This document shows, in pieces, positions 6,914 through 25,851 of a DNA stretch of 64,000 nt. Source of the DNA: an uncultured Spirochaetota bacterium (GTDB lineage: Bacteria > Spirochaetota > Brevinematia > Brevinematales > JAOACQ01); the NCBI GenBank assembly GCA_963768055.1, contig CAVYGN010000001.1, positions 1 through 64,000 of the forward strand. Direction: 5' to 3'. Under the pieces are notes generated by a model that saw nothing but the letters and a program-made list of their open reading frames with translations, had not been told where the DNA came from and made no database searches. Positions within the stretch are counted from its first letter, which is position 1. Every line of letters begins with the position of its first letter. Both the position numbers and the translations under genes were made by a program.

Positions 6914-6951
6914 AGGTCTTATTCATAATTTAAATAAATATTTTAAAATTG

Positions 6952-7097: not shown

Positions 7098-7118
7098 ACT
7101 TTTTGGAAGGAGATTGCC

Positions 7119-7503
7119 ATGTCTCAAATATTAAAGCCGGTATTAAATTATTTTAGAAACATTCCTGTCTTTTCAGGATGCAAGTTCTGGATTAAAGGAA
7201 TCCCCTTCTCAGAACCTCCCAGTAAACCCTATTAATGATGCCGGCGGAATCACGACTTATACTGCAACAGGCGCCCAATACGGCCTGCACCTGCTCTGGT
7301 TCATGATCGTTCTCGGTCCGGTCGCCTATTATGTCCAGGAGATGACGGTTCGTCTGGGGGCTGTTACCAAGCGGGGACATGCCGAGGCTATATTTTCAGG
7401 CTTCGGCTCTTTTTGGGGATGGTTTTCCCTGCTGGATTTAGTCATTTGCGACTGGCTGACCATGATAACAGAATTTATCGGGATGACTGCGGCCAAAGTT
7501 TGA
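7119..7503 (+). pseudogene. NRAMP-family divalent cation transporter, N-terminal part only
   Basis: NDAGGITTYTATGAQYG...YYVQEMTVRLGAVTKRGHAEAIF...ITEFIGM, which stops abruptly. Confidence 0.8.
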
Positions 7504-7662
7504 GTGAATAGTTATCGGATGACAAAAAGGTCCGGGGTAAAAAACGGGTGAGATTGTTTTATTGATTTATGATTATGTTGGTCAGGGCAAGTAACAATAT
7601 TGATTGACAATTAATGCTGATATCAGGTAATATATTGGATTAAAGGTATCGGAGGTTCCTGA

Positions 7663-7930
7663 ATGAACAAAGGTGAACTCGTTGAATTCCTGGTAGAAAA
7701 GGATAAATTGAGCAAAACTGAAGCTGGAAGAGTTCTCGATTCTGTGATTGAAGGCATCCGAGCATGGCCTGAAGAAAACAAAAGAGGTAGCGCTTGTAGG
7801 TTTCGGGACTTTCAAAGTAGTCGACAAGCCGGCAAGGGAAGGAAGAAACCCGAAAACAGGCGAGAAAATTAAGATAGCGGCAAAAAGGGCTGTATCTTTC
7901 AAAGGTCTAAAAGAATCTGTCGCAAAGTAA
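7663..7930 (+). CDS. hup: DNA-binding protein HU (one apparent frameshift near 7760)
   Basis: MNKGELVE...[16 protein letters not shown] plus [29 protein letters not shown]. Confidence 0.9.
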
Positions 7931-7970
7931 ATGAGGAGTTAGCACTCAATAAAATCTTAAAGGCTATGGC

Positions 7971-9240: not shown

Positions 9241-9379
9241 TGTTTCCTGTGATACATGTTAATCGACCAGGCGACAACGATTATTCCAGCGCTTGCTATT
9301 GCTGGTTCTTGCAAAAAACTCTGTTTTAGTTCATATTTTTGACTATCTTTTTATGGATTTCTGGCAATTACTGGGGGAA

Positions 9380-9568
9380 ATGGAAAATGGTAATTATTCC
9401 CTGTTCGCAAATATCACAGCACTAATATCGGGGGTGGATCAGGCAACGGCCGATATGCTCGTCCAGGGTGCTCATCAAATTTGCCCTTATTCCAATGCAA
9501 CAAGGGGAAATATTGAAATTAATGTTTCAGCACGAGCGCTCTCAGAAACATCTGGCAAAGCTGCTTAA
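9380..9568 (+). pseudogene. C-terminal fragment of an Ohr/OsmC-family peroxiredoxin
   Basis: GAHQICPYSNATRGNIEINV. The N-terminal Cys region is missing. Confidence 0.7.
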
Positions 9569-9659
9569 GGTTACGAAGATGAAACTCTTCGGAAAACCAG
9601 GGCCCCGATTACTGAAAATGACGTGCTTGACCTTTCGCACTGGAGCTTCAGTAAGGGAG

Positions 9660-9746
9660 GGGTTGTTAACTCATATTTATCATATCTACCAAAAAACCGG
9701 TTCGAAAAGTAAAACTGAACTCATCGAGATGGTAAAGATAGAATAA
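9660..9746 (+). pseudogene. LuxR-type HTH C-terminal fragment
   Basis: THIYHIYQKTGSKSKTELIEMV. Confidence 0.55.
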
Positions 9747-9767
9747 TTAATTCCCATAACTTTCTGA

Positions 9768-10174
9768 TTATTTACTTTCCCTTCCCTTTTTTTCAATAGC
9801 CCTTTCTATATCCCAGAACAAAGATAGCGCTTTCCTGAATTTATTTTTCTGACGGTCATAAATAGCCTCTGTATTCTCAATTTCTTTCCCGAATTCAACT
9901 TCCAGGAGTGACGACTTTTTTATCGAAAGCACCTGTGACGGGTAAACGCTCCTGCGTCCGGTCAGAAAAAACTGATAACACATGACATAGCGGCATATGG
10001 GGCGATTTGCGGCCCGAAAAGCTCGACTGCCATTATAATTGCGGCTATGGGCGTATTGGCGGCTCCGACTTTTCTGGCTGTTATTCCTTCAAAACCTTCT
10101 TTCCCGATTATTTCCATCGCCGCGTTGCGGATTTCGGTTTTAGTAATTTCCCTGTCTTTTTTTTGATTTTCCAT
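9768..10174 (-). pseudogene. Chimera of a TetR N-terminus and a CLC chloride/fluoride channel C-terminus
   Basis: EIRNAAMEIIGKEGFEGITARKV (TetR) joined to GAANTPIAAIIMAVELFG...LTGRRSVYPSQVL (CLC). Confidence 0.7.
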
Positions 10175-10188
10175 ATTTTCTCTCTATG

Positions 10189-11397
10189 TCAAATTTTCTT
10201 CAATGCATCGGACGGGGTCAGCTTCCTTGCCCTGTAAGCTGGAATCATAGAAGCAAGGGAGGAAATTATTACGGAAAGGATAATAGTAAAAACCAGCACG
10301 AATATATTTGCGGAAGGAAATATCATATTATCCAGTGGAATATCGACTTTATCCATCAGGGCCGAGATATCCAGGCCTGTTATGCTGAATATCAGGACCA
10401 GTACATATCCCGTGCTTCCCCCGGCTATACCCCCGATTGTGCCGATGATTCCCCCTTCGAAAACAAAGTTGATAAACAGCTCCCTATCAGTCATCCCAAG
10501 CGCTTTTAAAGTACCTATTTCAACCATCCTTTCGAAGACTGCCATCATCATAGTGTTGATTATAACGAAAGAAGCAAGGAACATTATCAATGCTTCGAAG
10601 AAGATCATTATGTTTTCAGTCAGCTTAAGGGCATCATAAAAACTACCAAGCTGCTGCGGGTAAGAAAGCGCCAGGTAACCGGCGGGAATGATTTTCCGGA
10701 TCCGGTCCGCCGCTTTATCCGAATATTCATTCTTTTTTGTGAAGACATAAATTTCTGAAACTTCGTCGCCGGTCTTTAGGAGCTTTCTTGCGTCGCTTAT
10801 ATCGACAAAGAAAAAGTCCCTGTCCATTTCCGTTACTCCGAAATGAAAAATTCCTGCAATGGGAAGCTTTATTCCGTTAAGTCCGCCTTCGCTTGTTTTA
10901 GTTGCTATAAGAAGCTTCTCTCCCATTTTTACATTCAGGTTACCGGCAAGTATATCCCCGATATAAATCCCATGGGCGACAATATCCCCCTTGATGATAA
11001 AATGCTTCAGGTCCAGCCTGCTATTTTTAAGTTCAATTCCCTCTCCGACAGCTGCGATAGTCTGGTCCCCTTTCGCCAGAAGGATTCCAAATCGTATTCT
11101 TTGCTCTATTGAAGTGACTTCCGGGATTTTTGATATTTTTTTCTCGAGGAACTCCGGCTCTTTAATTAGCTCATCTACCGGAAGGAATCGTTCCCTCTTA
11201 TAGAATCCGCCGGTGACTATCCTGACATCCCCGGTCTGGTATTTTACATAACTGTTCCAGACATTATCCATGACCCCATGCACCCAGCCGTCTGAAGAAG
11301 CGGCTATTATGGCAGCTATAAAAATCGATAGGCCCGTGAGAAAAGATCTTTTTTTATTGCGAAAAACATTCCTGAATGCAAAGACTAATAAATTCAT
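10189..11397 (-). CDS. ABC transporter permease, LolE/MacB-FtsX type
   Basis: FRNKKRSFLT, INTMMMAVFERMVEIGTLKALG, IPAYRARKLTPSDAL. Confidence 0.92.
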   Translation of the reverse strand: MNLLVFAFRNVFRNKKRSFLTGLSIFIAAIIAASSDGWVHGVMDNVWNSYVKYQTGDVRIVTGGFYKRERFLPVDELIKEPEFLEKKISKIPEVTSIEQRIRFGILLAKGDQTIAAVGEGIELKNSRLDLKHFIIKGDIVAHGIYIGDILAGNLNVKMGEKLLIATKTSEGGLNGIKLPIAGIFHFGVTEMDRDFFFVDISDARKLLKTGDEVSEIYVFTKKNEYSDKAADRIRKIIPAGYLALSYPQQLGSFYDALKLTENIMIFFEALIMFLASFVIINTMMMAVFERMVEIGTLKALGMTDRELFINFVFEGGIIGTIGGIAGGSTGYVLVLIFSITGLDISALMDKVDIPLDNMIFPSANIFVLVFTIILSVIISSLASMIPAYRARKLTPSDALKKI

Positions 11398-11406
11398 AGC
11401 ACCTCC

Positions 11407-12627
11407 TCAAATGTTCCTGAGGCTTTCGGCAGGCTGCAGTTTAACGGTTTTCCTTGCGGGATACAAACTTGCAATACTGCTGATTAATATCCCGGCGATG
11501 AATCCGGACATCATTACAGGGAGATCCCATTTGGCTTTAACAATTCCCATAAGGTCGTAACCGAGGTTTCCTTTAGTGCTTGCAGTCGCTATGGTCAAAT
11601 TGAAACCGAAATGGACATAATACAGATTAACGGCGCATCCCATTATCAGTCCGATCAAGCAGCCCCAGAATCCGATCCAGAAGCCTTCAAGGACGAAGAG
11701 AAATTCTATCGCCGGGTCGGTCATCCCCAGCGCTTTAAGCATGCCGATCTCCTTCTTTTTTTCATAAACGGACAGGAGCATGGTATTGATAATGCCTACA
11801 ACTGCTATAATGGCCATAAAGAAGATGAAGAAATATGCGCTGGTTGCGTCGGCCTGAGCGAATTTCAGATAGTATTCTCCGAGTTTATACCAGGTATATA
11901 CTTTTTCTTCAGGGAAGGTTTTTTGCAGCTCTTTACCGTACTGATCAGTTTTATGAATATCTGGTGTAATAACAGCAATTTCCATTACGCTATCTATGTT
12001 AAGAGCTTTTTTCGCATCATCGATATCGATATAAACCGTTGAATTATTGACCTGCGGATCCGCTGCCTGCACTATTCCGGTTACCTGGAACCCTATTGAA
12101 TCTATAACGCCTTGTCCGTTATGAAATGTGATATAAGCCTGGTCTCCAATCCCGATCTTCATATCGTCGGCGAGAGACTTCCCGAGCACGATCCCTCCGG
12201 TTTTTAAGCTGCCTGCAATGAAGAAATTGGTTAATGAAAATACGGAAGGGTCTTTCTGCAAGTTTACCCCGACGGCTACCACCGGGACGGCATCGACGCC
12301 ATTATCCAGATCAGCGGTAAAAGAAATCCTTTCCGTGTAAGACTTTATATATTTTTTAGTCCCCAGGATATTTTCAATCTCCCTGTAATTTGTAATAAAA
12401 TTACTTGTCGAGTAAGGTTTCGTCTCATCAAAGCTTCCGCTCCGGATCTTGAGGTGTGATGTTTCAAAGCCTATAAGGTTTTCCTTCTGCTTGTCCTGCA
12501 CCCCTCGTATAAGTCCGGAAAATGAAATGAACATTGCCATTCCCAAGGCTATTACCGAAACTGTCAATACTGTCCTCCGTTTCTGGCGAAGAATATTGAT
12601 TAGAGAGAGTTTGAAAAGATATTTCAT
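11407..12627 (-). CDS. ABC transporter permease, LolE/MacB-FtsX type
   Basis: LRQKRRTVLT, INTMLLSVYEKKKEIGMLKALG, YPARKTVKLQPAESL. Confidence 0.92.
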   Translation of the reverse strand: MKYLFKLSLINILRQKRRTVLTVSVIALGMAMFISFSGLIRGVQDKQKENLIGFETSHLKIRSGSFDETKPYSTSNFITNYREIENILGTKKYIKSYTERISFTADLDNGVDAVPVVAVGVNLQKDPSVFSLTNFFIAGSLKTGGIVLGKSLADDMKIGIGDQAYITFHNGQGVIDSIGFQVTGIVQAADPQVNNSTVYIDIDDAKKALNIDSVMEIAVITPDIHKTDQYGKELQKTFPEEKVYTWYKLGEYYLKFAQADATSAYFFIFFMAIIAVVGIINTMLLSVYEKKKEIGMLKALGMTDPAIEFLFVLEGFWIGFWGCLIGLIMGCAVNLYYVHFGFNLTIATASTKGNLGYDLMGIVKAKWDLPVMMSGFIAGILISSIASLYPARKTVKLQPAESLRNI

Positions 12628-12655
12628 TAACCCCCCCTTTTGGGTAATATGAATA

Positions 12656-12678
12656 TATTAATACAATCTGTATTAATA
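12656..12678. promoter_or_regulatory. Palindromic operator upstream of the permease operon
   Basis: TATTAATACA-atc-TGTATTAATA, a perfect 10-bp inverted repeat. Confidence 0.6.
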
Positions 12679-13045
12679 ATAAGCAAATCAGTATTTAATG
12701 TCAATATCTCTCACATTTGCAAGAATGATCAGTGATAATCACTTATGCTTTTTCATTAAATCAGTGAAAATTCCTGACTATGTTTTAATAGATTCAGTGA
12801 GATTTCCTGATTTTAAAGTCCGGGATTACTGGTAGAATATTATTGCTTTATTAAATAAATCTAAATAAAAAGCAGGCTCATATGTTGATAAAAATACTGA
12901 TCTTTATTTTCTCTTTCGGCTGCTTGTCTTTTGCATTTTTTTTCAGGGATTTGATTCTAACCGGATTGATATTTTTTGCTATCGGGATAGCAGGTATACT
13001 TTATTTGATAAAAAAACAATTTGAGTAAAATTTTAGGAGGAATAT

Positions 13046-13612
13046 ATGAAGTTTAGTATTGGAGTATTGCCAATCATCTTAATTGCTGCTTTGGTATCAT
13101 GTTCAGGAAATGTCAAACAAACAAGTCCGGTGACATCCCCAGTGGTAACAAATTCATCCCCTGTTGTAACCAATATAGATTCAGGAGATAATTTCGATAC
13201 AGCTTATACTGAATTTACAAATATAAGGATGGATATTCCTTTCAGTCTCAGATCATCAGACTTGAAACTTGATGATTCCGGTTACTATATTAAAAATCAG
13301 AGTATTGAAAGTTTTATGAAAAAATCCTTGATCCCGGCTCTGGATAAGGTTATAAAAATGATGCCTTCCGGCAAGATTGTAATTGTAAATGGTTATGCTT
13401 CGAAAACCAGCACGGAAGAGCCAAGCAAGGACTTTATTGGGAACATTGCCCTATCAAAAAACCGGGCACAGACAGTGCTTGATTATATGCTTAAAAATAC
13501 AGATTGGGATGCTTCGAAATTCAAGATCAAATTCTATGGATAATCAATCCCACTGCCAGGAATAGATCCAGCTGATCGTAAAAATTGCAGGGTAAGTATA
13601 GATATTGAATGA
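13046..13612 (+). pseudogene. OmpA-like domain lipoprotein with an in-frame TAA at 13541
   Basis: Lipobox LVSC; VNGYAS...NIALSKNRAQTV..YM; after the stop the frame continues SIPLPGIDPADRKNCRVSIDIE. Confidence 0.75.
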
Positions 13613-13646
13613 AACTGGAAACTTTCTCATACACTCCCCCTATAAA

Positions 13647-13675
13647 AGGCCCCGCTTTGAATAAAAGCGGGACCT
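13647..13675 (+). terminator. Hairpin, possible terminator
   Basis: CCCGCTTT-gaat-AAAGCGGG stem after the OmpA-like gene. Confidence 0.5.
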
Positions 13676-13703
13676 GTATTTATTGTAAAAAAAGGAGGCA
13701 TTT

Positions 13704-14669
13704 ATGAAGCGGATAATTATTATTGCATTGTTTGCTTATTTACTTGTAATATTTGGAAGCTGTTCGACTATAAAGCCGGAAGAGTTCAACAAGCTTAAGT
13801 CAGATAACGCTGATTTAACGGCTGAAAACCAGACCCTGAAAACTGACAAGGCGAATCTGGCCGCTGAAAACCAATCTTTGCTGAACGATCAGAATCAGAA
13901 GAAGAAAGATATCGCCGCCCTGCAGGATACCAGGGACAGGCTGCAAAATTTGCTGTCTAAATACTCGAACGATAATGTCAATTTGAAGAACCTTGGCGAC
14001 TCGACAAAAAATTCACTTGGCAAGCAGGTGGAGGATCTGGAAGCTTCGATAAAGGATAGGGATTTGAAGATCGCCAATCTCCAGGATGAAATAACCAACA
14101 GGGACAGCCAGATAGGTGATCTGCAGAAAACAATCAATTCACTTTCAGAAAGTCAAGCAAAGCTTTTGCAGGAAAAAAACCTTGAGATATCGAATATTAC
14201 AGCTACACATAATAAACTGGAATCGGCAATGCAGGCCGAATTAGCTTCGGGCGAACTGAAGATCAAGCAGATCGGAGATGTACTGAGTGTGGATTTTCAG
14301 GATAAGATTTTCTTCGATTCGGGAAGTGCCGATATCAGGAACAGCGGAAAGGTGACGCTTGATAAGATTGCCAAGGTTTTAAAAAATTATACAAATAAAC
14401 AGGTCAGGATCGAGGGTTATACGGATAATGACCCTATAGCCCCGGGATATCTATGGAAATTCCCTTCAAATTGGGAACTTTCCACAGCCAGGGCGACTAC
14501 TATAGTACGTTACCTTCAGTTGCGGGGTGTCGATCCTTCTCAGTTGAAAGCAACTGGATATGGGGAGTATAATCCGATAGTTCCCAATGATTCGGCTGAA
14601 AATAAGGCTCAGAACAGGAGAATTGTAATTCTTCTTGTCCCTCTTGACGAGAGGGCGAGATACAGATAA
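13704..14669 (+). CDS. OmpA/MotB-family lipoprotein with a long coiled coil
   Basis: Lipobox FGSC; IFFDSGSA, RIEGYTDNDPI, SNWELSTARA, GYGEYNPI, NRRIVI. Confidence 0.92.
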   Translation: MKRIIIIALFAYLLVIFGSCSTIKPEEFNKLKSDNADLTAENQTLKTDKANLAAENQSLLNDQNQKKKDIAALQDTRDRLQNLLSKYSNDNVNLKNLGDSTKNSLGKQVEDLEASIKDRDLKIANLQDEITNRDSQIGDLQKTINSLSESQAKLLQEKNLEISNITATHNKLESAMQAELASGELKIKQIGDVLSVDFQDKIFFDSGSADIRNSGKVTLDKIAKVLKNYTNKQVRIEGYTDNDPIAPGYLWKFPSNWELSTARATTIVRYLQLRGVDPSQLKATGYGEYNPIVPNDSAENKAQNRRIVILLVPLDERARYR

Positions 14670-14769
14670 AATTAATAACAAAACGGCTGAATTTCCTTGT
14701 CCTGCTATTTGCCGTGCCGGCAAAAGCTAATACAGGGCAGGGGAAAGCTGTTAAATCAAGCATTAAAAA

Positions 14770-15051
14770 ATGGAGTTTCAGATGATTCATCTGCCCGGAA
14801 TTTTAGCAAGCCTTCTTATAGGAGTAATTCCGGCTGTCGCAGGGAAAAATAATAACAACTTAAAGCTCGGAGCGATCGGATTTATTTCCTGCCTGGTTTC
14901 AGGATCGATTTTTAGTTTACTGATACCAGTCTTATTAAATTTAATGGTGGATGATACCTATATTAGATTGATAAATTCTCTGATGTTTGGTCTGGCAGGA
15001 TCCGTTCCTTTTGCCGAATATTTCATATGGAAAATAAAGAGGGAAAAATAG
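14770..15051 (+). CDS. Small hypothetical membrane protein
   Basis: 93-aa ORF with three hydrophobic stretches. Confidence 0.5.
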   Translation: MEFQMIHLPGILASLLIGVIPAVAGKNNNNLKLGAIGFISCLVSGSIFSLLIPVLLNLMVDDTYIRLINSLMFGLAGSVPFAEYFIWKIKREK

Positions 15052-15280
15052 TAGGGTGACGAAATTCTTTGTCTTCATGAAAAGTAAGGTAAAAGTTAAA
15101 ATATTTATTGCATAATCCTATATATTGTATTAAGATATTTATGCGATTACGATTTGATTACGAATTGATTATGGTTTTTTAGTCAAATCGTAAATTTCAT
15201 AATTTATAACTGTTTGTGGAATAAAGAATTAGTGGAAGGGCGAGATTTTTCTGAATCCCCTCCTCCTCCGAATTCCCCGG

Positions 15281-15409
15281 AACCAATCCGGCCAATCTAA
15301 CCAAAAAAAACGCTGTTTTGACGAAGTTTGCCAGTCAGGTGCCGAAGGTGCCCGAAGGGCACTATATAGGTCTTGAGCCGCAGGCTCAATGGCCAGTAGA
15401 TTATAATGA
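15281..15409. repeat. GCCAGT-family site, copy B, with a REP-like hairpin insert
   Basis: Shares about 55 bp with 18243-18300 and shares the hairpin insert with 20953-21048. Confidence 0.85.
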
Positions 15410-15473
15410 TGTATATTAAATTAGTTCAGGAACAAATCAATATTGATTTTTTATGCTTATTCCCGATGTTTTT

Positions 15474-15615
15474 CTATGCAGTCCAATTCAGCTTTTTTTT
15501 CTTGTTGGCACAATCGGTAAGGTACATATCGATCAGAGTCTGATAAAGGATTCCATTTTCTTTTGACAATGATTTAAAATACTCGATGGTTTTTGTTTCA
15601 AGCCTGATAGAATGC
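15474..15615 (-). pseudogene. BrnA-like antitoxin C-terminal fragment
   Basis: SIRLETKTIEYFKSLSKENGILYQTLIDMYLTDCA. No cognate toxin is adjacent. Confidence 0.7.
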
Positions 15616-15763
15616 GCTGACCGCTTTTGTAACAACAGCAAGGCTCGCGGAGAAAATCGGCATTGAGCTGTGGCAATATGAGAACTCGAATGGTCGGGGA
15701 ATAAGAAAGGCATTGGATTTCGAAAGACTATCTCTTCGATTTAACATATCCGCTGCGCTTAAA

Positions 15764-17959
15764 TTAGCCCACCAGCATCCCAAAACCCAGGATCAATTTT
15801 TCGAAGTTTTCCATTATTTTCCATTCTATAATTGGAATTCCTTTTAAAAGAGACGCAGGAATAATAACTGCTTCAACAGGTTTAACGGCGAATGCCTTAA
15901 AGATATGGGAATAACCGAGAATGACCTCTTCCTCCCCAAAGAAATCACCTGCCTTCAGAATATCAATGCGTTTCCCCTCTGCCCTGATTTCAGCTTCCCC
16001 TGACTTGATCAGGATCAGACCTGGTTCGCTTCCTGATGTAAGTTCCTCCGATGATTTGAAAGATTTTACGGAAACTTTTTTTGCCATCCAGTACTGGGTC
16101 GGGGTCGGGACCATTTCCCCGAAAAGAGGGGTACTCTGCAGGAAGGATATCATTTCAAAAGTTTGTTTAAGGTCTTCCTGATTGAGGTTGCGCTGAATGA
16201 AGTGGTTATAGATCTCTACCGGAATCTGCAGAACTTTAACATGGCTCAGCGTACGGTAAGTCCTGCGGGATGCCTCGTGGTAAAGTGCGGCCATTTCACC
16301 AAGAAAAGAACCGGTGGAAAGCCGGATAGAGAGCTTCTTCTCGGAATCAATATACTCGGCAACTCCGCTTAAGATCAGGAAAATATACCGCGGTTCATCT
16401 CCTTTCTTTAGAATGATTTCCCCAACACCGAATGAAACTACAGAGCAGTTTAAGAGCATGTTGAGATCGGAAACAGGTGCGACTGGAAAATATTCCTGCA
16501 TATAGATATATGCTGCCTGCATAGCATAATCCTTATTTGATCGGATAAGCACATCGGTTTGTCCGAATGAGGCGTTCGAGCCGATTTCCTTCTCCTCCGG
16601 GGTCAATTCCCGGGATGTATGGCTGAGAAATATCTTGCGGGAACGGTCATTTGCAAAGTCTTCCGCATCACCATGGATCATCCCGCCGCCGATATCAATC
16701 TTTTTAATGTCTGCCGGGGTTGTAAAACACATTTTAAACTGTTCGTACATAGTTTTTGCAGTAGCACTTTCTTTCGTCCGCTCTAATAGCAATGAATCCA
16801 GCATCTTAAGAGATGGAATATCGGTAAGGTGTGCGTATGTACGGTAACCGGATTCCCAGAAAGTCCTGAAAAAAAGGATTGAAGTTTCCACCGGGTGGGG
16901 AGAAAATACAGGCATCACCTCCAGTCCATTGATATTATTCCATTCATTGAAATTAAGGTCATGAATGATAAATGAATTATTAAAGCGCTGTTCGGAAATA
17001 GACATAAGCGAAGAAAGCTTTTTCGTAACTGAGGCTCTGACAAGCGGAGTTGCGTAGTAATGGATCCGGTGGTCGGACCTTACGAGCGATGTTAGCCCGG
17101 CAAAATGGTCGTCATGAGCGTGGGTATGGAATATTCCCCCTATTTCATTAATGCTGATGCCGAGGGCTGTCAGGCTGTGGAGGATATTCGGGCCGGTATC
17201 GATCAAATAGATATTACCTTGATATGTAATTAAGCTCGACATACATGGCTTGGAAGTCTCCCAGCCATCGCCTTCACCGATATGAATAATGGAAAAATAT
17301 TCCTTGCGTATTTCATGAAAGTCAGGGTTAACGGCGGGCTTATACTCTTCGCTTTTGGTCAGATTCAGATTAACCGTGAGGTTCTCGTTTTGATATATGA
17401 AATCGAATATATTCAGCCCTCTTCTTCGGATCAGAACTCCGCTCCGGACTTCTACGGCGGATGTTTCCACGGGCCTGTAATCAAGCAGTTCTTCTGTTTT
17501 TGTTATTTTTCCGAAAGAAAACTTCATTTTAAGATGGAATATTTCTTCCGCCATTTTCGGATCGACCCCCGCCGCGATTATTTCTTCCGTGTTAAGTCCG
17601 TAATTTCCGCGCATGATATACTCGCTCTGCGCGGCGATCTGTGCGGGATGCCCGATCATGATCGGCTTTTTCCCGTTATTGCCGGGATGATTAGGGATGA
17701 TCATTCCCTGGCGGTAAAACATCTGGAGTATGGGAAATTCTGCAAGATTTGAAAACTGGCCGTTTTGGATCGATACATCTGAAAGCAATATGGCATTCGG
17801 ACCGGTTTCATAAGCGACCCCCTTTTTTATTTTCGGGACAATGAAGCCACGGATCATAAGATGTTTTACAATATCCGCAGGACATCCGCAGAGGATATAG
17901 AGTTCTTCCTCGGGAATTTCCACCCAGTAAACGCCGTTGGTTACTTTTATTTTCTCCGT
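15764..17959 (-). CDS. Metallo-beta-lactamase-fold protein with two cyclic-nucleotide-binding domains
   Basis: FHTHAHDDHFAG metal motif; two cNMP domains (GSFLGEMA..SRRTY; GDFFGEE). The frame is open 12 codons upstream of the listed GTG, to an ACG behind an SD. Confidence 0.88.
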   Translation of the reverse strand, partial: TEKIKVTNGVYWVEIPEEELYILCGCPADIVKHLMIRGFIVPKIKKGVAYETGPNAILLSDVSIQNGQFSNLAEFPILQMFYRQGMIIPNHPGNNGKKPIMIGHPAQIAAQSEYIMRGNYGLNTEEIIAAGVDPKMAEEIFHLKMKFSFGKITKTEELLDYRPVETSAVEVRSGVLIRRRGLNIFDFIYQNENLTVNLNLTKSEEYKPAVNPDFHEIRKEYFSIIHIGEGDGWETSKPCMSSLITYQGNIYLIDTGPNILHSLTALGISINEIGGIFHTHAHDDHFAGLTSLVRSDHRIHYYATPLVRASVTKKLSSLMSISEQRFNNSFIIHDLNFNEWNNINGLEVMPVFSPHPVETSILFFRTFWESGYRTYAHLTDIPSLKMLDSLLLERTKESATAKTMYEQFKMCFTTPADIKKIDIGGGMIHGDAEDFANDRSRKIFLSHTSRELTPEEKEIGSNASFGQTDVLIRSNKDYAMQAAYIYMQEYFPVAPVSDLNMLLNCSVVSFGVGEIILKKGDEPRYIFLILSGVAEYIDSEKKLSIRLSTGSFLGEMAALYHEASRRTYRTLSHVKVLQIPVEIYNHFIQRNLNQEDLKQTFEMISFLQSTPLFGEMVPTPTQYWMAKKVSVKSFKSSEELTSGSEPGLILIKSGEAEIRAEGKRIDILKAGDFFGEEEVILGYSHIFKAFAVKPVEAVIIPASLLKGIPIIEWKIMENFEKLILGFGMLVG

Positions 17960-18242
17960 AATAAACTCCCCGAATGACTTTTAAGATATTAATTATAATA
18001 CATAATAATAAATTAAAACAGACTGAAAATGAAATAAACAAAATTTATATGGCATAAAAAATTTAAAACCACTATGATTCCTGCAAAATCCTCAATTCTT
18101 CCATAACCTTATGTAAAGTGTTCGTTCGGCTTCCATCCAGCGGTGGTAAAAGTAATACACCAATCAATTATACTCATTTATTTCAAATTTATTTGGTTAG
18201 ACTGGCTCATTTGATTGAAAAACGGCTATTTTATCAAATTCT

Positions 18243-18345
18243 AACCAATCCAGCCAATCCAACCAAAAAAACGCTGTTTTGACGAAGTTTACCAGTCCAG
18301 TGCCAGTAAATTATAATGAATTAGGTGATTTACTGGTAACTGGCA
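18243..18345. repeat. GCCAGT-family site, copy C
   Basis: CCAATC..CCAAAAAAACGCTGTTTTGACGAAGTTTACCAGTCCAGTGCCAGTAAATTATAATGAATTA...TTTACTGGTAACTGGCA. Confidence 0.85.
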
Positions 18346-18421
18346 GGACCCTTTAAGGATTTAAAGCTCGCTGAATTATTGGTGCCGCCTGTCATTACCT
18401 TGAAATTAATAAGGACGGTTT

Positions 18422-19516
18422 TTATTTATTCTCCGCTAAAACTTTGTTGATCAAAAGATCGTTAAATTTCTGAGCTTCCTCGAAGTTTGGCATGTGAGCG
18501 GAATTCTCAAACCAGAATATTTCTTTTTTTGGAGCTTTCAGGGATTTAAAGTATTTTTCCGCCAGTTCGAAGGGGTCGTTATAATCATGACGGCCTTCCA
18601 TAAAATAAACCGGTATTTTAAACTCCTTAGCGGCTACCGTCAGATCGTCCATCGTTAATTCTTGTGGCAATATCTTGATGAGGCTAAAAATAGCTCCTGC
18701 TGTAAACCCGAACAGGTCAAATACATTTTCCTCTGGGCCAAATAATGACTTAAAAAGTAAATTATAATCTTTCTGCCCGTAAATCGCTCCACCGTAATAA
18801 AGCAGCCATTTTCTCTCTATCCCTATATCGGAGAATAACCGGTCTCCCTGAGAAGGATAATTAGTAAGAGAACGAAGTTCTTTTAGAGCCTTAGAATTAT
18901 TTTCTTTTTCAGCCATATCCAGAGTAAACCGGTAGCTTGCTTTTTCATCATCGATAAAATTAACAACCTGGCCGATTCCGATATAGGCTTTAATCCGTTC
19001 CGGATATCTTTCGGCAATATTAGCTCCCAGAAAGCTGCCCCAGGAATGTCCGGCCAGAAAAATCTTGTCCTGATGAAAACGTTTACAGAGTATTTCTATC
19101 AAGTCATGTCCGTCTGAAATAAACTGTTCCAGATTCATAGAACCCTTTGGAATAAATGGATTAAAAGATTTACCTGTCCCACGCTGGTCCCAGTTTACCA
19201 CGATAAAATAATTTTCTAATTCTGAATTAAAATGCCTTACTAAAGGCATTTCATCGGTGCCGGGTCCCCCGTTAAGAAACAGGAGTATAGGGTTCCTGTC
19301 GTTTTTGCCCCGGATTAAAATAGTCTGTTCCATACCGCCAAGCCGGATGTGCTCCAGGGACGCCACACTTCCAAGAATGACATTGCCGTCAGGACCTTTA
19401 AATGGTGGAGTCTGCATAAAATGATAGGATAGGAACATACCGGCGTACATTACCAGGATCAGCAAAGCGATTAATCCAGCGATACCTAAAAGGATTTTCT
19501 TGATCATTACAATCAC
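18422..19516 (-). CDS. Alpha/beta hydrolase (proline iminopeptidase-like), membrane anchored
   Basis: NGGPG, WDQRGTGKS, GHSWG nucleophile elbow, FENSAH. Confidence 0.92.
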   Translation of the reverse strand: MIVMIKKILLGIAGLIALLILVMYAGMFLSYHFMQTPPFKGPDGNVILGSVASLEHIRLGGMEQTILIRGKNDRNPILLFLNGGPGTDEMPLVRHFNSELENYFIVVNWDQRGTGKSFNPFIPKGSMNLEQFISDGHDLIEILCKRFHQDKIFLAGHSWGSFLGANIAERYPERIKAYIGIGQVVNFIDDEKASYRFTLDMAEKENNSKALKELRSLTNYPSQGDRLFSDIGIERKWLLYYGGAIYGQKDYNLLFKSLFGPEENVFDLFGFTAGAIFSLIKILPQELTMDDLTVAAKEFKIPVYFMEGRHDYNDPFELAEKYFKSLKAPKKEIFWFENSAHMPNFEEAQKFNDLLINKVLAENK

Positions 19517-19525
19517 CTCTTAATT

Positions 19526-20074
19526 TTATTTATTTCTCCGTTTCTCAAATTCTTTCATTAATCTTGCCTGCGCATTAAATTGTTCTTCATCCATTTCAAA
19601 ACCTGCCTCTTCTTCAAAGCCATTTTGTTCTGCACCGTCAAAACGGAACATTTTCTTTAAAAATCCCCACAATAGTTCCATTTCATCCTTTGAAAATTCC
19701 TTAAAAAGATCCAGAAAAAAGATCATTCCTTTCTCGCTGCATTCTATTGTTGCATGTTTACCAGCCTCGGTTATTTTAACATTGACCACCCGTTTATCCC
19801 GCGGGCTGGGTACTGTGACTATATAACCTTTTTTTTTCATGCTATTTACTAGCTGTTTGATATTCTGTCTGGTAGTTCCCAATTTTACCGCTATGTTGTT
19901 CAATATTGGCCCATCTTCCTTTAAATGAAGAATTGCCATCATTACCATAAGCTGTCTTGACGTTAATTTTCCAAGATACTTATCTCCTACTAACTGAAGC
20001 TTGTTGGAAAGTGAAAAGAGAGTCGCAGAAACCTGCTGCATTAAAAATAGTATTTCTACCGGATTTTCAGCCAT
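19526..20074 (-). CDS. MarR-family transcriptional regulator
   Basis: LTSRQLMVM, LGTTRQNIKQLV, PRDKRVVNVKITEAG. Confidence 0.9.
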   Translation of the reverse strand: MAENPVEILFLMQQVSATLFSLSNKLQLVGDKYLGKLTSRQLMVMMAILHLKEDGPILNNIAVKLGTTRQNIKQLVNSMKKKGYIVTVPSPRDKRVVNVKITEAGKHATIECSEKGMIFFLDLFKEFSKDEMELLWGFLKKMFRFDGAEQNGFEEEAGFEMDEEQFNAQARLMKEFEKRRNK

Positions 20075-20084
20075 ATTTCTTTCT

Positions 20085-20120
20085 CTATAATAATAGGCAA
20101 TATATTGCCTATTATTATAG
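20085..20120. promoter_or_regulatory. Perfect 36-bp palindrome, probable MarR operator
   Basis: CTATAATAATAGGCAATA|TATTGCCTATTATTATAG, 10 bp upstream of the marR start. Confidence 0.75.
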
Positions 20121-20190
20121 CAATTTTTTATACTTTGTCAATAGATCGAATAATTAGAATAAATATTTTTTCTACTTTGTAAATTCTTAT

Positions 20191-20230
20191 AAAAACTCGA
20201 TTTTTTACTGAAATTTTCTGCCAGTCAGGC
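20191..20230. repeat. GCCAGT-family site, partial copy D
   Basis: AAAAACTCGATTTTTTACTGAAATTTTCTGCCAGTCAGG resembles the left halves of copies B and E. Confidence 0.55.
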
Positions 20231-20283
20231 ACCTGTAAAAAATTGGAGCTGCGTGAAAGATCGACAGTGATTCTTATTGTTCA

Positions 20284-20574
20284 TTATTTTGTCATTTGAA
20301 CGATTTTGGTTACTTCGTCTTTATCATAGTATTTTTTATTGATATACTTATGAAGAATACTTGATATTAAAGTCTGATATGGTATGCCCTCATCTTCAGC
20401 AATATTCTTAATCTGTTCAAGGTCATTGTTATTCAATCTTAAGGTTACAACTTTTTTCTTTCCGCCTTTTTTAAGTATGGTTTCAATACTTTTCTTCTTA
20501 TCAAGACTCACTGGCTTATATAAATGAGATTCATTTTCAATTTTTTGCTCGGCTAAATCTAATTTATATTTCAT
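20284..20574 (-). CDS. Antitoxin, CopG/BrnA-like
   Basis: VTLRLNNNDLEQIK..AEDEGIPYQTLISSILHKY. Confidence 0.85.
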   Translation of the reverse strand: MKYKLDLAEQKIENESHLYKPVSLDKKKSIETILKKGGKKKVVTLRLNNNDLEQIKNIAEDEGIPYQTLISSILHKYINKKYYDKDEVTKIVQMTK

Positions 20575-20575
20575 C

Positions 20576-20854
20576 TTAACTCTCCTTATATATTTTATGA
20601 AATTTTCTACTTGGATAAACTGTCTTTATAACTATATTATCATCTTTATCGATTACAAAAGGAACAATATACGTATAATTACGGTATGATATTATAAATA
20701 ATTGCTGATTCTTTTTTGCCGGGTGTTCAAGTATGGCTATATATTCATTGTCTATAAGCAATTGTGCCACTTCATCGATATCAATGTTTCGTTCGAATTT
20801 TAGTTTAATTGCTTTGGCTTCATCACATAGCACCATAATAAAATAATAAACCAA
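20576..20854 (-). CDS. BrnT-like (RelE-fold) toxin; true start probably a few codons inside
   Basis: KLKFERNIDIDEV, LEHP, YIVPFV, IVIKTVYPSRK. Directly upstream of the antitoxin. Confidence 0.8.
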   Translation of the reverse strand: MVYYFIMVLCDEAKAIKLKFERNIDIDEVAQLLIDNEYIAILEHPAKKNQQLFIISYRNYTYIVPFVIDKDDNIVIKTVYPSRKFHKIYKES

Positions 20855-20921
20855 TTAGTTTATATTGTCAATATAATGTAAATTAATAAAAGTCATTGAA
20901 AAAAATTAAAAGTTTTATAAT

Positions 20922-21048
20922 CCAAAAAACTAGTTTTTTGTGTAAAACTTCCGCCAGTCAGGTGCCGAAGGTGCCCGAAGGGTGCCTTAGGTCTTGAACA
21001 GTACCCTGAGCCTTCGGCTCAGGGCAAGTGCTCAATGGCCAGTAAAAT
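20922..21048. repeat. GCCAGT-family site, copy E, with nested REP-like hairpins
   Basis: GCCAGTCAGGTGCCGAAGGTGCCCGAAGGG is identical to copy B; ends GCTCAATGGCCAGTA. Confidence 0.85.
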
Positions 21049-21181
21049 ATTTTCAAAGTCTTATAATTCTATACAGTAAAATGAATTGCACTGTTTGTGT
21101 TTAACGAATTAGCCTACAGGTGAATACGCCTATAGAAAGCTGAGCATTTCTAAACTTTTTCACAATATTTTTAAATTCTGC

Positions 21182-21244
21182 TTGACAAATAAATCTCGGG
21201 TATGCTATGATTGTCTGCCGCTAAATATAGGGTGGTGGGGTATA
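21182..21244 (+). promoter_or_regulatory. Promoter and CsoR-type G-tract operator
   Basis: TTGACA (21182)...TATGAT, then TATAGGGTGGTGGGGTATA just upstream of csoR. Confidence 0.55.
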
Positions 21245-21263
21245 CTATAATAAAGGGGATTTT

Positions 21264-21578
21264 ATGGAAAGAAAATGTGAACACTGTGATACTGACGGAG
21301 TCAGAACAGCTCATCATTCGGAGAAGCTCAAGAATAACATGGTTTCCCGGCTCAACAGGATCGAAGGCCAGGTCAGGGGAATAACCAAGATGATCCTGGA
21401 TGACATTTACTGCGACGATGTCCTGAACCAGTTTCATTCCGTCGAAGCGGCCCTCGCCGGCGTAAAAAGGGTACTCCTTGAAGCACATTTCAGGAGCTGT
21501 GTCATCGGACAGATCAAGGAAGAAAAAGAAGGAGCCATTGAAGAATTTCTTGAAACGGTAGAGAAAATGATTTGTTAA
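21264..21578 (+). CDS. csoR: CsoR-family copper-sensing repressor
   Basis: RLNRIEGQVRGI..MI..DIYCDDVL, EAHFRSCV (Cys-His-Cys ligands). Confidence 0.92.
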   Translation: MERKCEHCDTDGVRTAHHSEKLKNNMVSRLNRIEGQVRGITKMILDDIYCDDVLNQFHSVEAALAGVKRVLLEAHFRSCVIGQIKEEKEGAIEEFLETVEKMIC

Positions 21579-21646
21579 AATAAGCCCCGCATACGGGATT
21601 TGCAAGGATTAATTGTGTGCTATCGCACACAACAAGGAGAATATAG

Positions 21647-24064
21647 ATGGAGAAAGCGATTACGTTAGGTATTACAGGGATGTCATGTGCGTCCTGCTCT
21701 CAAAGGATAGAAAAAGGGCTTATGAAGCTTACCGGAATATTGACCGCGAATATTAATCTCGCCCTGGAAAAAGCTCAGGTTTCCTACGACGATTCACAGG
21801 TTAAGATCGAGGATATAAAGAGGAAAATCGAAGATATCGGCTATGGGGCAATACTTCCGGTAAAGGAAACAAAAAAGAGGGATGGCATTGTAGAGCTTTC
21901 TATAAGCGGTATGACCTGCGCGTCATGCAGCGGAAGAATTGAAAAAAAGCTTTCAAGCCTGGAAGGGATACACCTGGCTAATGTTAACCTTGGGTCGGAA
22001 AGGGCTTATGTCGAATTCGACCCTGTCTTGATAAACCCTGCCGGTATTATCGAAGCCGTACGGGATCTTGGGTACGGTGCGGCAGAGTTTAAGGAAGAAG
22101 CGGAAGATGAAGCGGCTGTTGAAAGGAAAAGGGAAATGCGAAATCTTGGCATCCTCTTCATAATTTCGGCTGCCCTTTCCCTGCCTCTGCTTGCGGGAAT
22201 GTTATTAATGCTCCTGAAAATCGAGTTTTCATTATTTGATAACCCGTATTTCCAGCTTGCCCTCGCCACACCTGTTCAGTTTGTAATAGGTTTCAGATTT
22301 TATAAAAACTCCTGGCACAATTTAAAGTCGCTGTCGCCCGGCATGGATGTGCTTGTAGCTCTCGGTACGTCCGCAGCATACTTCTTCAGCGTCTACAACG
22401 CATTTCTCGGCGGCAATCCCGGACAGCTATATTTCGAAGCTGGAGCGATCATAATCACGCTTGTACTTCTCGGTAAATACCTTGAATCCGTTGCTAAAGG
22501 GAAAACTTCGGAGGCTATTAAGAAACTCCTGTCACTGCAGGCCAAAACTGCCCGGGTTATCAGGGACGGCGTCGAACAGGACTTACCTGTCGAGGACGTT
22601 ATAATTGGAGACAGGATAATAGTAAAACCGGGAGAAAAAGTCCCTGTTGACGGGGTTATAGTGGAAGGATATTCTTCGATCGACGAGAGCATGGTTACGG
22701 GTGAAAGCATGCCGGTCGAGAAGAAGACAAGCTTCACGGTAATAGGAGCGACGCAGAACCTGAACGGCAGTTTCATATTCGAAGCTGAAAAGGTAGGTAA
22801 GGATACGATGCTTTCGCAGATTGTAAAGTTTGTAGAACAGGCCCAGGGTTCGAAAGCGCCTGTTCAGCGTCTCGCGGACCAGGCCGCAAGCGTATTTGTT
22901 CCCTTGGTGCTTGGCATAGCACTTGTCACATTTTTAATATGGATGATCGCGGGTCATGAAATATCCAGAGCAATGATCGCGGCGGTATCCGTCCTGGTGA
23001 TAGCCTGCCCATGTGCCCTGGGACTTGCGACTCCTACAGCTATAATGGTAGGCACTGGAAAGGGCGCGGAAAAGGGCATCCTTATCAAGAGCGGGGAAGC
23101 TCTGGAGAAGGCTTACCGGATAAGCATGGTGGTTTTCGATAAAACGGGAACAATAACGAATGGCAAACCGGCATTGACCGATATATTCCCTTTCGAAGGG
23201 TTTTCAGCAGATGATGTACTGCGCTATGCCGCTATTGCGGAAAATAACTCAAACCACCCCCTCGCCAAACCTATAGTCGATGCGGCAAAAGAAAAAGGCA
23301 TACTGGCTGCGTCGGAAAGATTTGATAACATTCCCGGGAAGGGGGTTGTTGCCAGTTTCAATAATAAGGAAATATTATTCGGAAATAAGAAGCTTTTATC
23401 CGAGCACGGGATAGATATCCGCGATGCGGACCTGGTTATGGAAAAACTTGAAAAAGAAGGAAAAACGGCTATGCTGGCGTCTTACGACGGTAATATCGCC
23501 GGAATTATAGCAGTCGCGGATACGATAAAGGAGAACTCGCATCGAGCCGTGCAAGCCCTGCAGAAAATGGGGATCAGAACAATGATGATAACGGGAGACA
23601 ATGCGAGGACTGCCCAGGCGATTGCAAAACAGGCGGGAATAGATAAAGTCATAGCGGATGTTCTTCCAGGGGATAAGGCAAAGGAAATAGAGATCCTGAA
23701 GAAATCAGGAGAGACCGTTGCGATGGTCGGGGACGGCATCAACGACGCGCCCGCCCTGGCCGCTTCCGACATCGGGATAGCTATCGGTGCGGGAACGGAT
23801 ATCGCCATCGAGGCTTCGGATATTACGCTTGTAAGGAACGATCTGATGTCTATTGTGGACGCGATCGGGCTTTCCAGGAAAACCATGGGGAAAATAAAGC
23901 AGAACCTTTTCTGGGCTTTTATCTATAATAGCATCGGAATACCGTTTGCCGCGCTGGGCCTCCTGAACCCTGTTATAGCGGGGGGCGCGATGGCATTCAG
24001 TTCCGTGTCCGTAGTGACAAATTCACTTTCACTTAAAAGGATTAAATTAGGAGTAAATTCATGA
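21647..24064 (+). CDS. copA: Cu(I)-translocating P1B-ATPase with two HMA domains
   Basis: [44 protein letters not shown]. Confidence 0.96.
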
Positions 24065-25851
24065 ATGCGAGAAAGATCTTTAAAATCGAAGGGATGACCT
24101 GCCACCATTGCGAAAACACTATCGAGGAAGCTTTGAAGAAAAAAGAGGGCATCATTAAGGTCGAAGCTCACCATGCCAAAAAAATGGCGAGGATCGAGTA
24201 CGATCCGGCAGTGATATCCGAGGCTGAGATAAAATTAATTATACGCGAAGCCGGATATGAAGTAAAGGATGTATCGGAAGATACCGGTTCGAGCAAAAAA
24301 GCCGTTGAAATCGCGCAGGTTGTGGGAATAAGTCTGGCCCTTCTGGGTATATATTTCCTGATTTCAAAAACGATAGGGTTCAATTTTATCCCCCAGGTAA
24401 ATTCTTCCATGGGGCTCGGAATGATCTTCGTGGTTGGAATCATTACATCTCTTCACTGTGTGGCAATGTGCGGGGGGATAAGCATATCCCAATGCGTGGA
24501 CAAGAAGGGGAATAAATATGCAAACAGCCTGCTCTATAACGCAGGGAGGGTCATTTCATATACGATCCTCGGCGGAATAATCGGAGCTCTGGGTTCTGTA
24601 TTCAATTTTTCCCCGGCCATCAAGGGCGGAATAGCCGTCGTTGCGGGAATCTTTATGGTATTCGTGGGCCTGAGGATGGCGGGAGTTTTCACCTTTCTCA
24701 AGAAGGTTAAAATCCCTTTTGCAGGGATATTTTCAAAATTCGCTCCTAAAAAAACCGGATTGAAAAAACAAAGTTACGGCCCTTTCATTGTAGGCCTTTT
24801 AAACGGGCTTATGCCCTGCGCGCCTCTCCAGGCGATGCAGCTATACGCGCTGGGTTCGGGAAGTGCATTAGCGGGAGCGCTATCGATGTTCTTCTTTTCA
24901 ATAGGCACGATGCCCCTGATGTTCGGCCTGGGCACGGCTGCCTCACTCCTTTCGAGAAAATTCTCGGGAAGCCTGATCAGGATAAGCGCTGTGCTTGTGG
25001 TTTTTCTGGGACTTGTCATGGTGAACCGGGGTATGTCGTTGACCGGAAACGGGGTTGTAATAACCCCGGCTCAGGCAAATGTAGCTGCAATAAAAGGTGA
25101 TCACCAGGAAGTCACCATGGTCGTCAGTCCGAACGGGTACGAACCTATCGTTGTACAGAGGGGTATACCTGTTAGGTGGATCATTAAAGCAAATAGCGAT
25201 TCATTAAACGGCTGTAATAACGGGATCCTTGTTCCGCAGTTCAATATAACGAAAAAACTGGCTCCCGGTGATAATATCGTGGAATTCACTCCGGATACAT
25301 CCGGGAAATTCGGTTATTCATGCTGGATGGGTATGATCCGGAGCACTGTAACGGTTGTTGACGATATAGCAAAGGTAGATCCTGATTCCATAAAAACAAA
25401 CGACCAGTCGGTGCCTCAGAATTATGCCGGAGGATGTTGCAAGGGCGGTACCGGAAAGCCCCTGTCTGAAAGCGATATATATGTACCTCCGGTTGTTAAT
25501 AACCGGCAGGAAGTAACTATTAACGTGGACCAGAACGGTTACAGCCCGGCGATAATCGTAATTCAGAAGGGTGCAGCTTTTAAAGTAAAATTTGTCGCCA
25601 AACAGCTGACATCCTGCAACAGCGGCGTGTTTTTCCCGGAATACGGCGGAGGCCTTGACTTTACAAAGGGACAGCTGGAAACACCGCTTCTCAAAGCCTC
25701 ACGGGATTTTCATTTTACCTGCTGGATGGGCATGATCAAGGGCTTCGGGGCGGTAGTCGACGATGTCAATAATTTTAATAAAGCGGATTTAATAGCCAGG
25801 GCTAGTCTGCCCGGACCCGGCGGCGGCAGGGGCGGATGCTGCGGAAGATGA
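24061..25851 (+). CDS. HMA + DsbD_2/TauE-like membrane domain + two cupredoxin-like domains
   Basis: [31 protein letters not shown] twice, Cys-Cys tails. Confidence 0.88.

Follow-up and report, generated by a model that had tools for sequence, protein, structure and literature searches.

What are the short GCCAGT-containing sites that separate unrelated genes in a 64,000-nt stretch of DNA from an uncultured Spirochaetota bacterium of the order Brevinematales (contig CAVYGN010000001.1, positions 1 to 64,000; referred to as the window), and do they take part in building this array? We report that five mutually related sites, A to E, are present within 5762-21112 of the window, all on the plus strand, and that one relative carries such sites at the same chromosomal place with different genes between them and, at one further locus, between a tRNA-Ser gene and a tyrosine recombinase gene. 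The reading that we favour, and to which we give a somewhat better than even chance, is that the sites are arm regions of the attachment (att) sites of Brevinematales integrative elements, whose tyrosine recombinase is specific to the lineage and whose target is the 3' end of a tRNA-Ser gene. The region between 5.8 and 21.1 kb is most likely a variable island, formed by successive integrations and composed of integrase-less modules, beside a conserved copper-resistance operon. A preliminary description of this DNA had proposed that the sites serve a recombinase that builds a module array and that they represent an undescribed system. The former appears plausible and is supported by the checks which that description itself named; the latter is not borne out, since the tRNA-Ser/site/integrase layout and a tRNA fragment at site B fit known tRNA-targeting elements with tandem accretion and integrase loss.

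A family of sites shared with two relatives

The window contains 40 copies of the hexamer GCCAGT where 15.5 +/- 4.5 are expected (at least 40 in 0 of 100 shuffles), and 15 of GCCAGTARAT with at most one mismatch where 7.2 are expected (1 of 100 shuffles reached 15). Pairwise identities are 90.5% over 63 nt for sites B and C, 76.9% over 78 nt for B and E, which have an identical 30-mer in common, and 71.9% over 89 nt for A and C; a segment-wise identity matrix of the sites was too noisy for use.

When genomes were scanned for the exact 18-mer core, 26 loci were obtained. None of these shows the window's spacing of three matches, and hence the window's own genome lies outside the scanned set. 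At 22 of the loci, from scattered phyla, only the 18-mer matches, and these are chance matches; the whole unit is shared only by the other four, from two uncultured Brevinematales metagenome-assembled genomes (MAGs). L002 and L003 are overlapping loci of contig CAZHNM010000025.1, L014 is contig CAZHNM010000014.1 of the same MAG, and L020 is the fourth locus. Contig CAZHNM010000025.1 carries four co-oriented sites found by the profile described below, at L003 311, 3447 and 4671 (L003a, L003b and L003c) and at L002 5951 (L002d), while only three exact core matches from this MAG were among the loci returned.

A nhmmer profile was built from the left half common to 11 copies, five from the window and six from the relatives. 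In the 64-kb window it recovered A to E on the plus strand between 5762 and 20967 at E = 1e-8 to 1e-12 (A 4.6e-8, B 2.2e-10, C 1.1e-8, D 1.2e-10 and E 1.4e-12). As the profile includes A to E, only missing matches elsewhere carry information: the other 43 kb of the window have no copy (next match at E = 0.33), nor do 22 unrelated loci (best E ~0.9). A look-alike at 49533-49584, which immediately precedes a polysaccharide deacetylase gene, has only the -10-proximal part in common with the sites, lacks the left half and was not recovered by the profile; it was not counted as a family member and is treated as an ordinary promoter. We conclude that the GCCAGT feature is real, structured and conserved across genomes.

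Anatomy of the sites and of the modules between them

Alignment of the five window copies and the six copies from the relatives gave the anatomy of the sites. The left half, present in all copies, consists of phased A- and T-tracts, a GCCAGT motif and a short conserved spacer, and it is followed by a right half in one of three forms. The full type, seen in A, C, L003b, L014 and L020 and shortened in B and L002d, continues with another GCCAGTA and TATAAT and, beyond a spacer, with a pair of inverted GCCAGT motifs, and the first GCCAGT overlaps a TTGCCA located 17 nt before TATAAT; as single strands these sites fold into a two-box hairpin (z = -2.3 to -3.5). In the E-type (E, L003a and L003c) a conserved tail of ~60 nt, unlike that of the full type, comes after the second motif, and the third form, D, stops at the left half. 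Moreover, the sites are mosaic, the left flank of B being like that of C and its insert like that of E. This insert, a GC-rich hairpin block between the two direct motifs, is present in B, E and L003c, and parts of it resemble hairpins at 39451-39480 and 44711-44747.

We note that the former hairpin lies in a row of small GC-rich hairpins with GNRA-like loops (39430-39550) between two glycoside hydrolase genes, and the latter in a related hairpin pair (44711-44750) upstream of an ABC sugar-transport operon; both partly match the insert of site B, and these hairpins may constitute a repetitive extragenic palindromic (REP)-like family.

The sites, the modules and the right flank are, with coordinates in the window:

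5762-5851, plus strand: site A, full type; A/T-tract left block, two direct GCCAG, TTGCCA-N17-TATAAT, two inverted GCCAGT
5955-6913, plus strand: cation diffusion facilitator (CDF) efflux gene, two open reading frames (ORFs; 5955-6500 and 6638-6913; PF01545, PF16916); first gene downstream of site A
15178-15247, plus strand: possible remnant of an E-type (P-arm-like) right flank before the tRNA-like fragment; weak, alignment read by eye
15248-15271, plus strand: tRNA-Ser 3'-end-like fragment (T-loop to 3' end), putative recombination core
15281-15409, plus strand: site B; CCAATCC-repeat spacer, left block, GCCAGT, hairpin insert (15344-15391), GCCAGTA and TATAAT, without right arm
15474-17923, minus strand: module B-C; short BrnA/CopG-like ORF (15474-15713) and cyclic nucleotide monophosphate (cNMP)-binding metallo-beta-lactamase (MBL)-fold protein (15764-17923)
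18032-18117, minus strand: inverted internal CDF-gene fragment, 80% identical to 6228-6291 (64 nt), just left of site C
18243-18345, plus strand: site C, full type; CCAATCC spacer, left block, palindrome arms around TATAAT, hairpin z = -3.5
18422-20074, minus strand: module C-D; alpha/beta hydrolase (18422-19516) and MarR-family regulator (19526-20074)
20182-20236, plus strand: site D; left block and first GCCAGT only
20284-20854, minus strand: module D-E; CopG/BrnA-like antitoxin (20284-20574) and 92-aa putative BrnT-like toxin (20576-20854)
20912-21112, plus strand: site E, E-type; left block, GCCAGT, 71-nt hairpin insert (20967-21037), GCCAGTA, right flank common with L003a
21164-25851, plus strand: conserved flank; csoR (21264-21578), copper P-type ATPase (21647-24064), DsbD_2/cupredoxin protein (24061-25851)

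The five positions and their common orientation agree with the preliminary description, which however gave other lengths: B reaches left to the fragment at 15248-15271 and E right to ~21112. Its optional insert is present in B and E and corresponds to the hairpin block. The identity of 33/38 between A and C becomes 32/38 on recounting, and the 38-bp quasi-palindrome ascribed to these sites reduces to terminal arms of 7-9 nt (GCCAGTA...TACTGGC) around a non-palindromic centre of 16-22 nt, with 8-10 of 38 positions self-complementary. One minus-strand module per interval holds with respect to the contents, which are confirmed by Pfam except that the BrnT match of the toxin is weak (E = 0.024, below the cut-off), but not for A-B, a 9.4-kb stretch with genes on both strands. 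The CDF gene, which starts 104 nt downstream of site A, is split, and its inverted fragment lies beside site C. Site E is the final site before the conserved chromosome. In Rfam 15 there were no matches at the gathering score in the whole window and none at E <= 1 in 15000-21300; no intrinsic terminators were predicted at the sites apart from a weak 5-bp stem (5813-5799), with a window total of 16 against 15.5 expected.

The hairpin inserts of B and E, being partly like dispersed hairpins, could indicate a selfish repeat family of the REP or miniature inverted-repeat transposable element type. For the site itself this is already largely refuted and we regard it as very improbable: there are no family copies outside the array in the window and all copies have one orientation, the relative MAG gave only the three exact core matches, there are no terminal inverted repeats or target duplications, and it is the insert, not the site, that resembles the dispersed hairpins. 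For the same reason the GC-rich insert was rejected as an explanation of the whole site.

The full-type right half raises another alternative, namely that the sites are portable promoters and operators, in which a strong sigma-70 promoter (UP-like block and TTGCCA-N17-TATAAT) with a palindromic operator has been duplicated for regulation and has no role in recombination. Site A matches the promoter consensus at 11/12 positions and site C at 10/12, C reads as a promoter on both strands, and full-type sites precede co-oriented genes at A (CDF), L003b (GH43), L014 (integrase) and L020 (TOTE primase domain); the unrelated gene promoter at 49533-49584 shares the -10 region. However, C and L002d face convergent genes, and B, E, L003a and L003c (E-type or with hairpin insert) as well as D lack the promoter geometry yet keep the left half, which is the most conserved part. 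Clustering and a uniform polarity whatever the gene orientation would be unexpected of a regulon, and promoter-like matches are only slightly enriched overall. This purely regulatory reading is in our judgement quite unlikely.

The array occupies the same place in a relative, with different content

The DNA to the right of site E, 21164-25849, is syntenic with L002 6407-11077 at 82-84% DNA identity over csoR, the copper ATPase and the DsbD_2/cupredoxin gene. Synteny starts at 21164, 52 nt past the end of site E, and leftward of this only the sites match. The orientation of the array relative to csoR-copA-DsbD_2 is identical in the two genomes, and the sites are co-oriented in both (5/5 in the window and 4/4 in CAZHNM010000025.1), while the DNA between them has nothing in common apart from the sites. 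The inter-site genes of the relative encode two surface proteins, a GH43 enzyme and a MerR-led oxidoreductase operon; those of the window instead belong to the toxin-antitoxin, MarR-hydrolase and cNMP-MBL modules. With a polar array in one and the same place and no inter-site genes in common, the two genomes show a complete turnover of content. The preliminary description had asked whether breakpoints in gene content fall at the sites, and gene content does change completely across the array next to the syntenic right flank; the scatter of a REP-like repeat or a transcription-factor site, which it named as the opposite outcome, is not what we observed, the sites being clustered and co-oriented.

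We also note a duplicated segment of 133 bp (93% identity) in the relative, at L003 504-636 and 4887-5018, which is the 3' end of an FMN-reductase gene and stands to the right of L003a, mirroring L003c. Beyond the conserved flank, the DsbD_2 gene of the window is followed by a second heavy-metal P-type ATPase gene (25965-28322, minus strand), and the ORF after DsbD_2 in the relative encodes a methyltransferase-domain protein instead.

Could the sites be inert, having arisen when segments of a decaying region rich in insertion sequences (ISs) were locally duplicated or inverted, or underwent homologous recombination? Fragments of IS66, IS3 and IS4 type together with cas remnants at 1-5661, the split CDF gene and its inverted fragment beside C, the 133-bp gene-end duplicate next to two sites in L003 and the mosaic structure of the sites all speak for such a history. 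Against it, the site family is found in three MAGs with the left half 82-95% identical and all inter-site DNA differing, one copy is located exactly at a tRNA-integrase junction, and the polarity is uniform in 9/9 array sites. We consider it distinctly improbable.

A tRNA-Ser gene, a site and a tyrosine recombinase gene at one locus

L014 has a tRNA-Ser(GGA) gene at 6133-6219 (ARAGORN). Read in the orientation of the site, the order is tRNA-Ser(GGA), a CCAATCC-containing stretch, the site, a strong ribosome-binding site and a tyrosine recombinase gene, so that here a recombinase gene abuts a copy, which the preliminary description had suggested looking for. The site is of the full type, lies ~100 nt downstream of the tRNA and has two extra direct GCCAGTAA motifs; its TATAAT is ~65 nt before the ATG of the integrase gene (4875-5936). 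The integrase has 353 aa and the domains Phage_integrase, Int_N and SAM-like, and its translation shows what we take to be the usual Arg, His-x-x-Arg and His/Tyr motifs. It is followed by RstR-like, HTH_36 and ParA genes, which look like a mobile-element backbone. The tRNA-site region also matches four phage records, over the tRNA-Ser part only.

The integrase fails the integron-integrase models (TIGR02249, 40.7 bits against a cut-off of 265; NF011946, 16.1 against 435) and the Xer models by wide margins. Its family is tiny: among 5.8 billion proteins there were, besides the query's own entry, three relatives at 81-84% identity, and the next match was at 25%. This makes it plausible that in related genomes the integrase is encoded elsewhere, as the preliminary description had assumed for the window. 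With tblastn the integrase had no match in L002, L003 or L020, and for eight further proteins encoded by the L014 element no match in the window or in these three loci was better than E = 0.2.

A recombinase and small modules between co-oriented sites also bring integrons to mind. The attC sites of integrons have complementary boxes, R'' (RYYYAAC) and R' (GTTRRRY), 50-160 nt apart, and the dif core has inverted ATAA and TTAT arms with a 6-nt spacer. No R''/R' boxes were found at the ten sites B to E, L003a-c, L002d, L014 and L020, and of six dif-like cores in the window (3.8 expected; 18 of 100 shuffles reach 6) none is located in a site, in keeping with the earlier statement that the sites fit neither attC nor dif. 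The sole R''/R' pair in the region scanned around A belongs to an 11-nt inverted repeat at 5665-5730 with attC-fitting ends; it overlaps the ribosome-binding region of an IS4-like transposase ORF and is probably an IS feature.

In an integron-like platform, which is the proposal of the preliminary description in its strong form, the GCCAGT sites would themselves be the crossover sites, a resident and vertically inherited recombinase would move single-operon cassettes, and the tRNA would be incidental. The intervals are indeed cassette-sized (0.7-2.9 kb in the window; 1.2 kb for the GH43 module in L003) and have no integrase remnants between the sites; the integrase relatives, at 81-84%, have about the divergence of the flanking core genes, as expected of a resident gene, and between genomes the left half of the site shows the level of conservation of coding DNA (82-85%). 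The two-box single-strand hairpin of the full-type sites keeps a cassette reading alive, without establishing it. However, attC-type boxes are missing at 10/10 sites outside A, the integrase is far below the integron-integrase cut-off and is found within a plasmid/phage-like gene set beside a tRNA, and similarity ends at no fixed position. Moreover, only 3/5 window sites (A, C and truncated B) and 2/4 sites of the relative have the full-type right half, and the E-type sites and D cannot form the hairpin. Taken together, we think that this reading is unlikely.

A variant is a Brevinematales gene-capture platform that is integron-like but made of different parts, in which the resident tyrosine recombinase by the tRNA-Ser gene would act in trans on duplex GCCAGT sites; this too strikes us as unlikely. 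In such a platform recombinase-free single-operon modules (toxin-antitoxin, defence, metal and carbohydrate) would be captured, stacked and shuffled beside csoR-copA, with the full-type site as an outward promoter.

Possible tRNA-derived sequence at the junctions

The integrative-element reading predicts traces of the tRNA at junctions. Left of site B, 15248-15290 aligns with the L014 tRNA from the T-loop to the 3' end together with the downstream CCAATCC (z = 5.6; 0 of 300 shuffles), and the fragment 15248-15271 is five edits from the last 22 nt of this tRNA. A near-identical fragment is present at L020 2317-2337, where the alignment test was marginal. When the E-type tails are aligned by eye with the sequences upstream of B and L020, a C-rich element resembling the tRNA 3' end appears in the same register, ~60 nt past the E-type motif, and continues into CCAATCC (B and L014) or into a different flank (L003a, L003c and L020). 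Three junction combinations can be read by eye: tRNA, core and P' arm in L014; E-type remnant, core and P' arm at B in the window; and E-type, C-rich element and different flank in L003a, L003c and L020. Judged from this short and partly weak alignment, they would agree with what exchange at a core should yield, namely attL, attR and a tandem attP-like junction.

At L020 2622-3531 we also observed that the full-type site lies ~20 nt upstream of an ORF that leaves the contig and encodes an archaeo-eukaryotic primase domain of the TOTE conflict system (E = 1e-98), and that a RelB antitoxin and a GNAT acetyltransferase are encoded upstream of the site.

An att-site model and what weighs against it

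According to the integrative-element reading, a complete att unit would have, on the plus strand, a P arm consisting of the A/T-tract block, two direct GCCAGT motifs and the E-type tail; ~60 nt past it the tRNA 3'-end core, which would be the point of strand exchange; then the CCAATCC-repeat spacer; and a P' arm in which the A/T-tract block is repeated and two direct and two inverted GCCAGT motifs surround the TTGCCA-N17-TATAAT promoter, followed by the integrase gene. We infer that the repeated GCCAGT(A) motifs are arm-type binding sites of the integrase, with the phased A/T tracts bending the DNA. As these motifs overlap its own promoter, the integrase would autoregulate. Repeated integration at one core would stack elements in tandem, and once integrase genes were lost, short cargo modules (toxin-antitoxin, MarR-hydrolase, cNMP-MBL and metal efflux) would remain, still bracketed by arm sites. 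Such modules might still be excised or reshuffled today, in trans, by an integrase encoded elsewhere, and in the integrase-less copies the orphan promoter would face the next gene, as it does CDF at site A.

Several observations weigh against this reading. The window has no tRNA gene in its 64 kb, no Phage_integrase domain among the 65 ORF translations scanned and no tblastn match to the L014 integrase at E < 5. The link between integrase and site comes from the single locus L014, whose element is seen from one end, and no element was seen with both ends. The tRNA alignment test was significant at only one of the five window sites (B), was marginal at C (3 of 300 shuffles) and E (7 of 300), and gave nothing at A and D; L003a and L003c are not within five edits of the last 22 nt of the tRNA. 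Conversely, two unrelated intragenic sequences (one in the overlapping part of L002 and L003) and one control match in 226,507 bases also pass at five edits or fewer, so that a short tRNA match by itself is only moderate evidence.

At its left edge the array adjoins IS and cas fragments, and the site nearest csoR in the relative is no clean attR but a truncated full type, with a pentapeptide-repeat ORF after it. The point at which similarity ends varies among D, B, E and L002d (after GCCAGTCAGG in D, after TATAAT in B, within the right arm in L002d), a pattern that resembles decay more than exact cassette borders. There has clearly also been duplication and deletion, as seen from the inverted CDF fragment by C and from L003a, which has the 133-bp copy (93%) of the gene end adjoining L003c; this copy and the variable ends of similarity point to ordinary duplication and deletion besides, or instead of, precise site-specific events. 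Finally, sigma-70-like matches are common in the AT-rich window (63 against 49 +/- 8 expected), and the promoter reading of the sites is therefore a consensus match only.

If the integrative-element reading is correct, this would be the first described att-site architecture, comprising a core, arm motifs and an arm-embedded promoter, and the first described integration hotspot in an almost unstudied spirochaete order. Very small integrase-less modules would then stay bracketed by recombination arms, in a position between classical genomic islands and integron cassettes. The site profile would mark island boundaries in these MAGs and explain assembly breaks there. If, on the other hand, the sites were the crossover points, they would represent a second, independent invention of cassette capture; a literature search found no publication joining Brevinematales with integrons.

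Neighbouring genes

At the left edge of the array, window 1-5661 comprises IS66-type fragments, an intact-looking IS3-type orfA/orfB pair (2553-4069) and IS4-type transposase fragments (4925-5661), together with type I-E cas remnants (Cse2, 1826-2104; a CRISPR_assoc domain, 2101-2490). Within the array, the cNMP-binding MBL-fold protein (15764-17923) has many family members of ~860 aa with an extra hemerythrin domain (PF01814), and its cNMP domain is weakly like those of Pycsar components. A search with this protein gave 3372 matches at E <= 1e-20 among 7998 candidates scored (best 96%, next 68%); the family is very large, extends across phyla and is uninformative about the sites. A near-perfect palindrome of 36 nt (20085-20120, 16-pair stem) covers a promoter of the MarR-family gene that matches the consensus at 12 of 12 positions, and is likely a MarR operator. 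Outside the array, large minus-strand ORFs at 54662-58283 contain repeats with a period of ~123-126 nt and have chitobiase-C and Listeria-Bacteroides repeat domains; they encode repetitive surface proteins.

Comparison with known systems

On Acinetobacter plasmids, short recombination sites for XerC/D delimit the pdif modules, which are small, have no relation to one another and are often toxin-antitoxin pairs. The array is like them in this respect, but its sites have no ATAA-N6-TTAT core, are direct repeats rather than alternating inverted pairs, and are found in a chromosomal rather than a plasmid setting (no plasmid match for site C). As in integrons, co-oriented sites lie between unrelated small modules including toxin-antitoxin pairs, the genes mostly have one orientation with the site at their 3' end, some sites are foldable imperfect palindromes, and a predicted promoter is located at the recombinase-proximal site. 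Unlike integrons, there are no R''/R' boxes, the recombinase scores far below the integron-integrase cut-off, has the same orientation as the site and adjoins a tRNA, and several sites are without palindrome.

Stacked elements in tRNA islands are documented for the Prochlorococcus tycheposons in bioRxiv 10.1101/2020.12.28.424599. As described there, the tycheposon islands have fixed chromosomal places and grow by repeated integration at tRNAs, each new element displacing its predecessors inward; degenerate remnants and partial tRNAs are scattered within them, and the cargo is adaptive (metal, nutrient and defence). On the integrative-element reading the array would resemble them in these features. 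The lineage, Spirochaetota, is different, the integrase family is unrelated by name, and the fragmented integrases of those islands had no counterpart in our tblastn searches.

The integrative-element reading comes close, finally, to the tandem accretion at tRNA genes of ICESt1-type and integrative and mobilizable elements with cis-mobilizable elements (CIMEs) that have lost their integrase genes, as documented in PMC5704250. The modules here are much smaller than the segments presented there, they keep mainly an arm block of ~55-100 nt rather than the core repeat (a tRNA-like core is seen at one window junction), and no conjugation or mobilisation genes were seen. In common with the system in that source, a site-specific tyrosine integrase would adjoin the 3' end of a tRNA, as at L014, the stacked segments would be set apart by direct repeats derived from att sites, and these segments would have lost integrase genes, kept att sequences and may be mobilisable in trans or in cis. 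The best-supported mechanism for the GCCAGT sites would accordingly be one already known, in which elements target a tRNA, accrete in tandem and lose their integrases.

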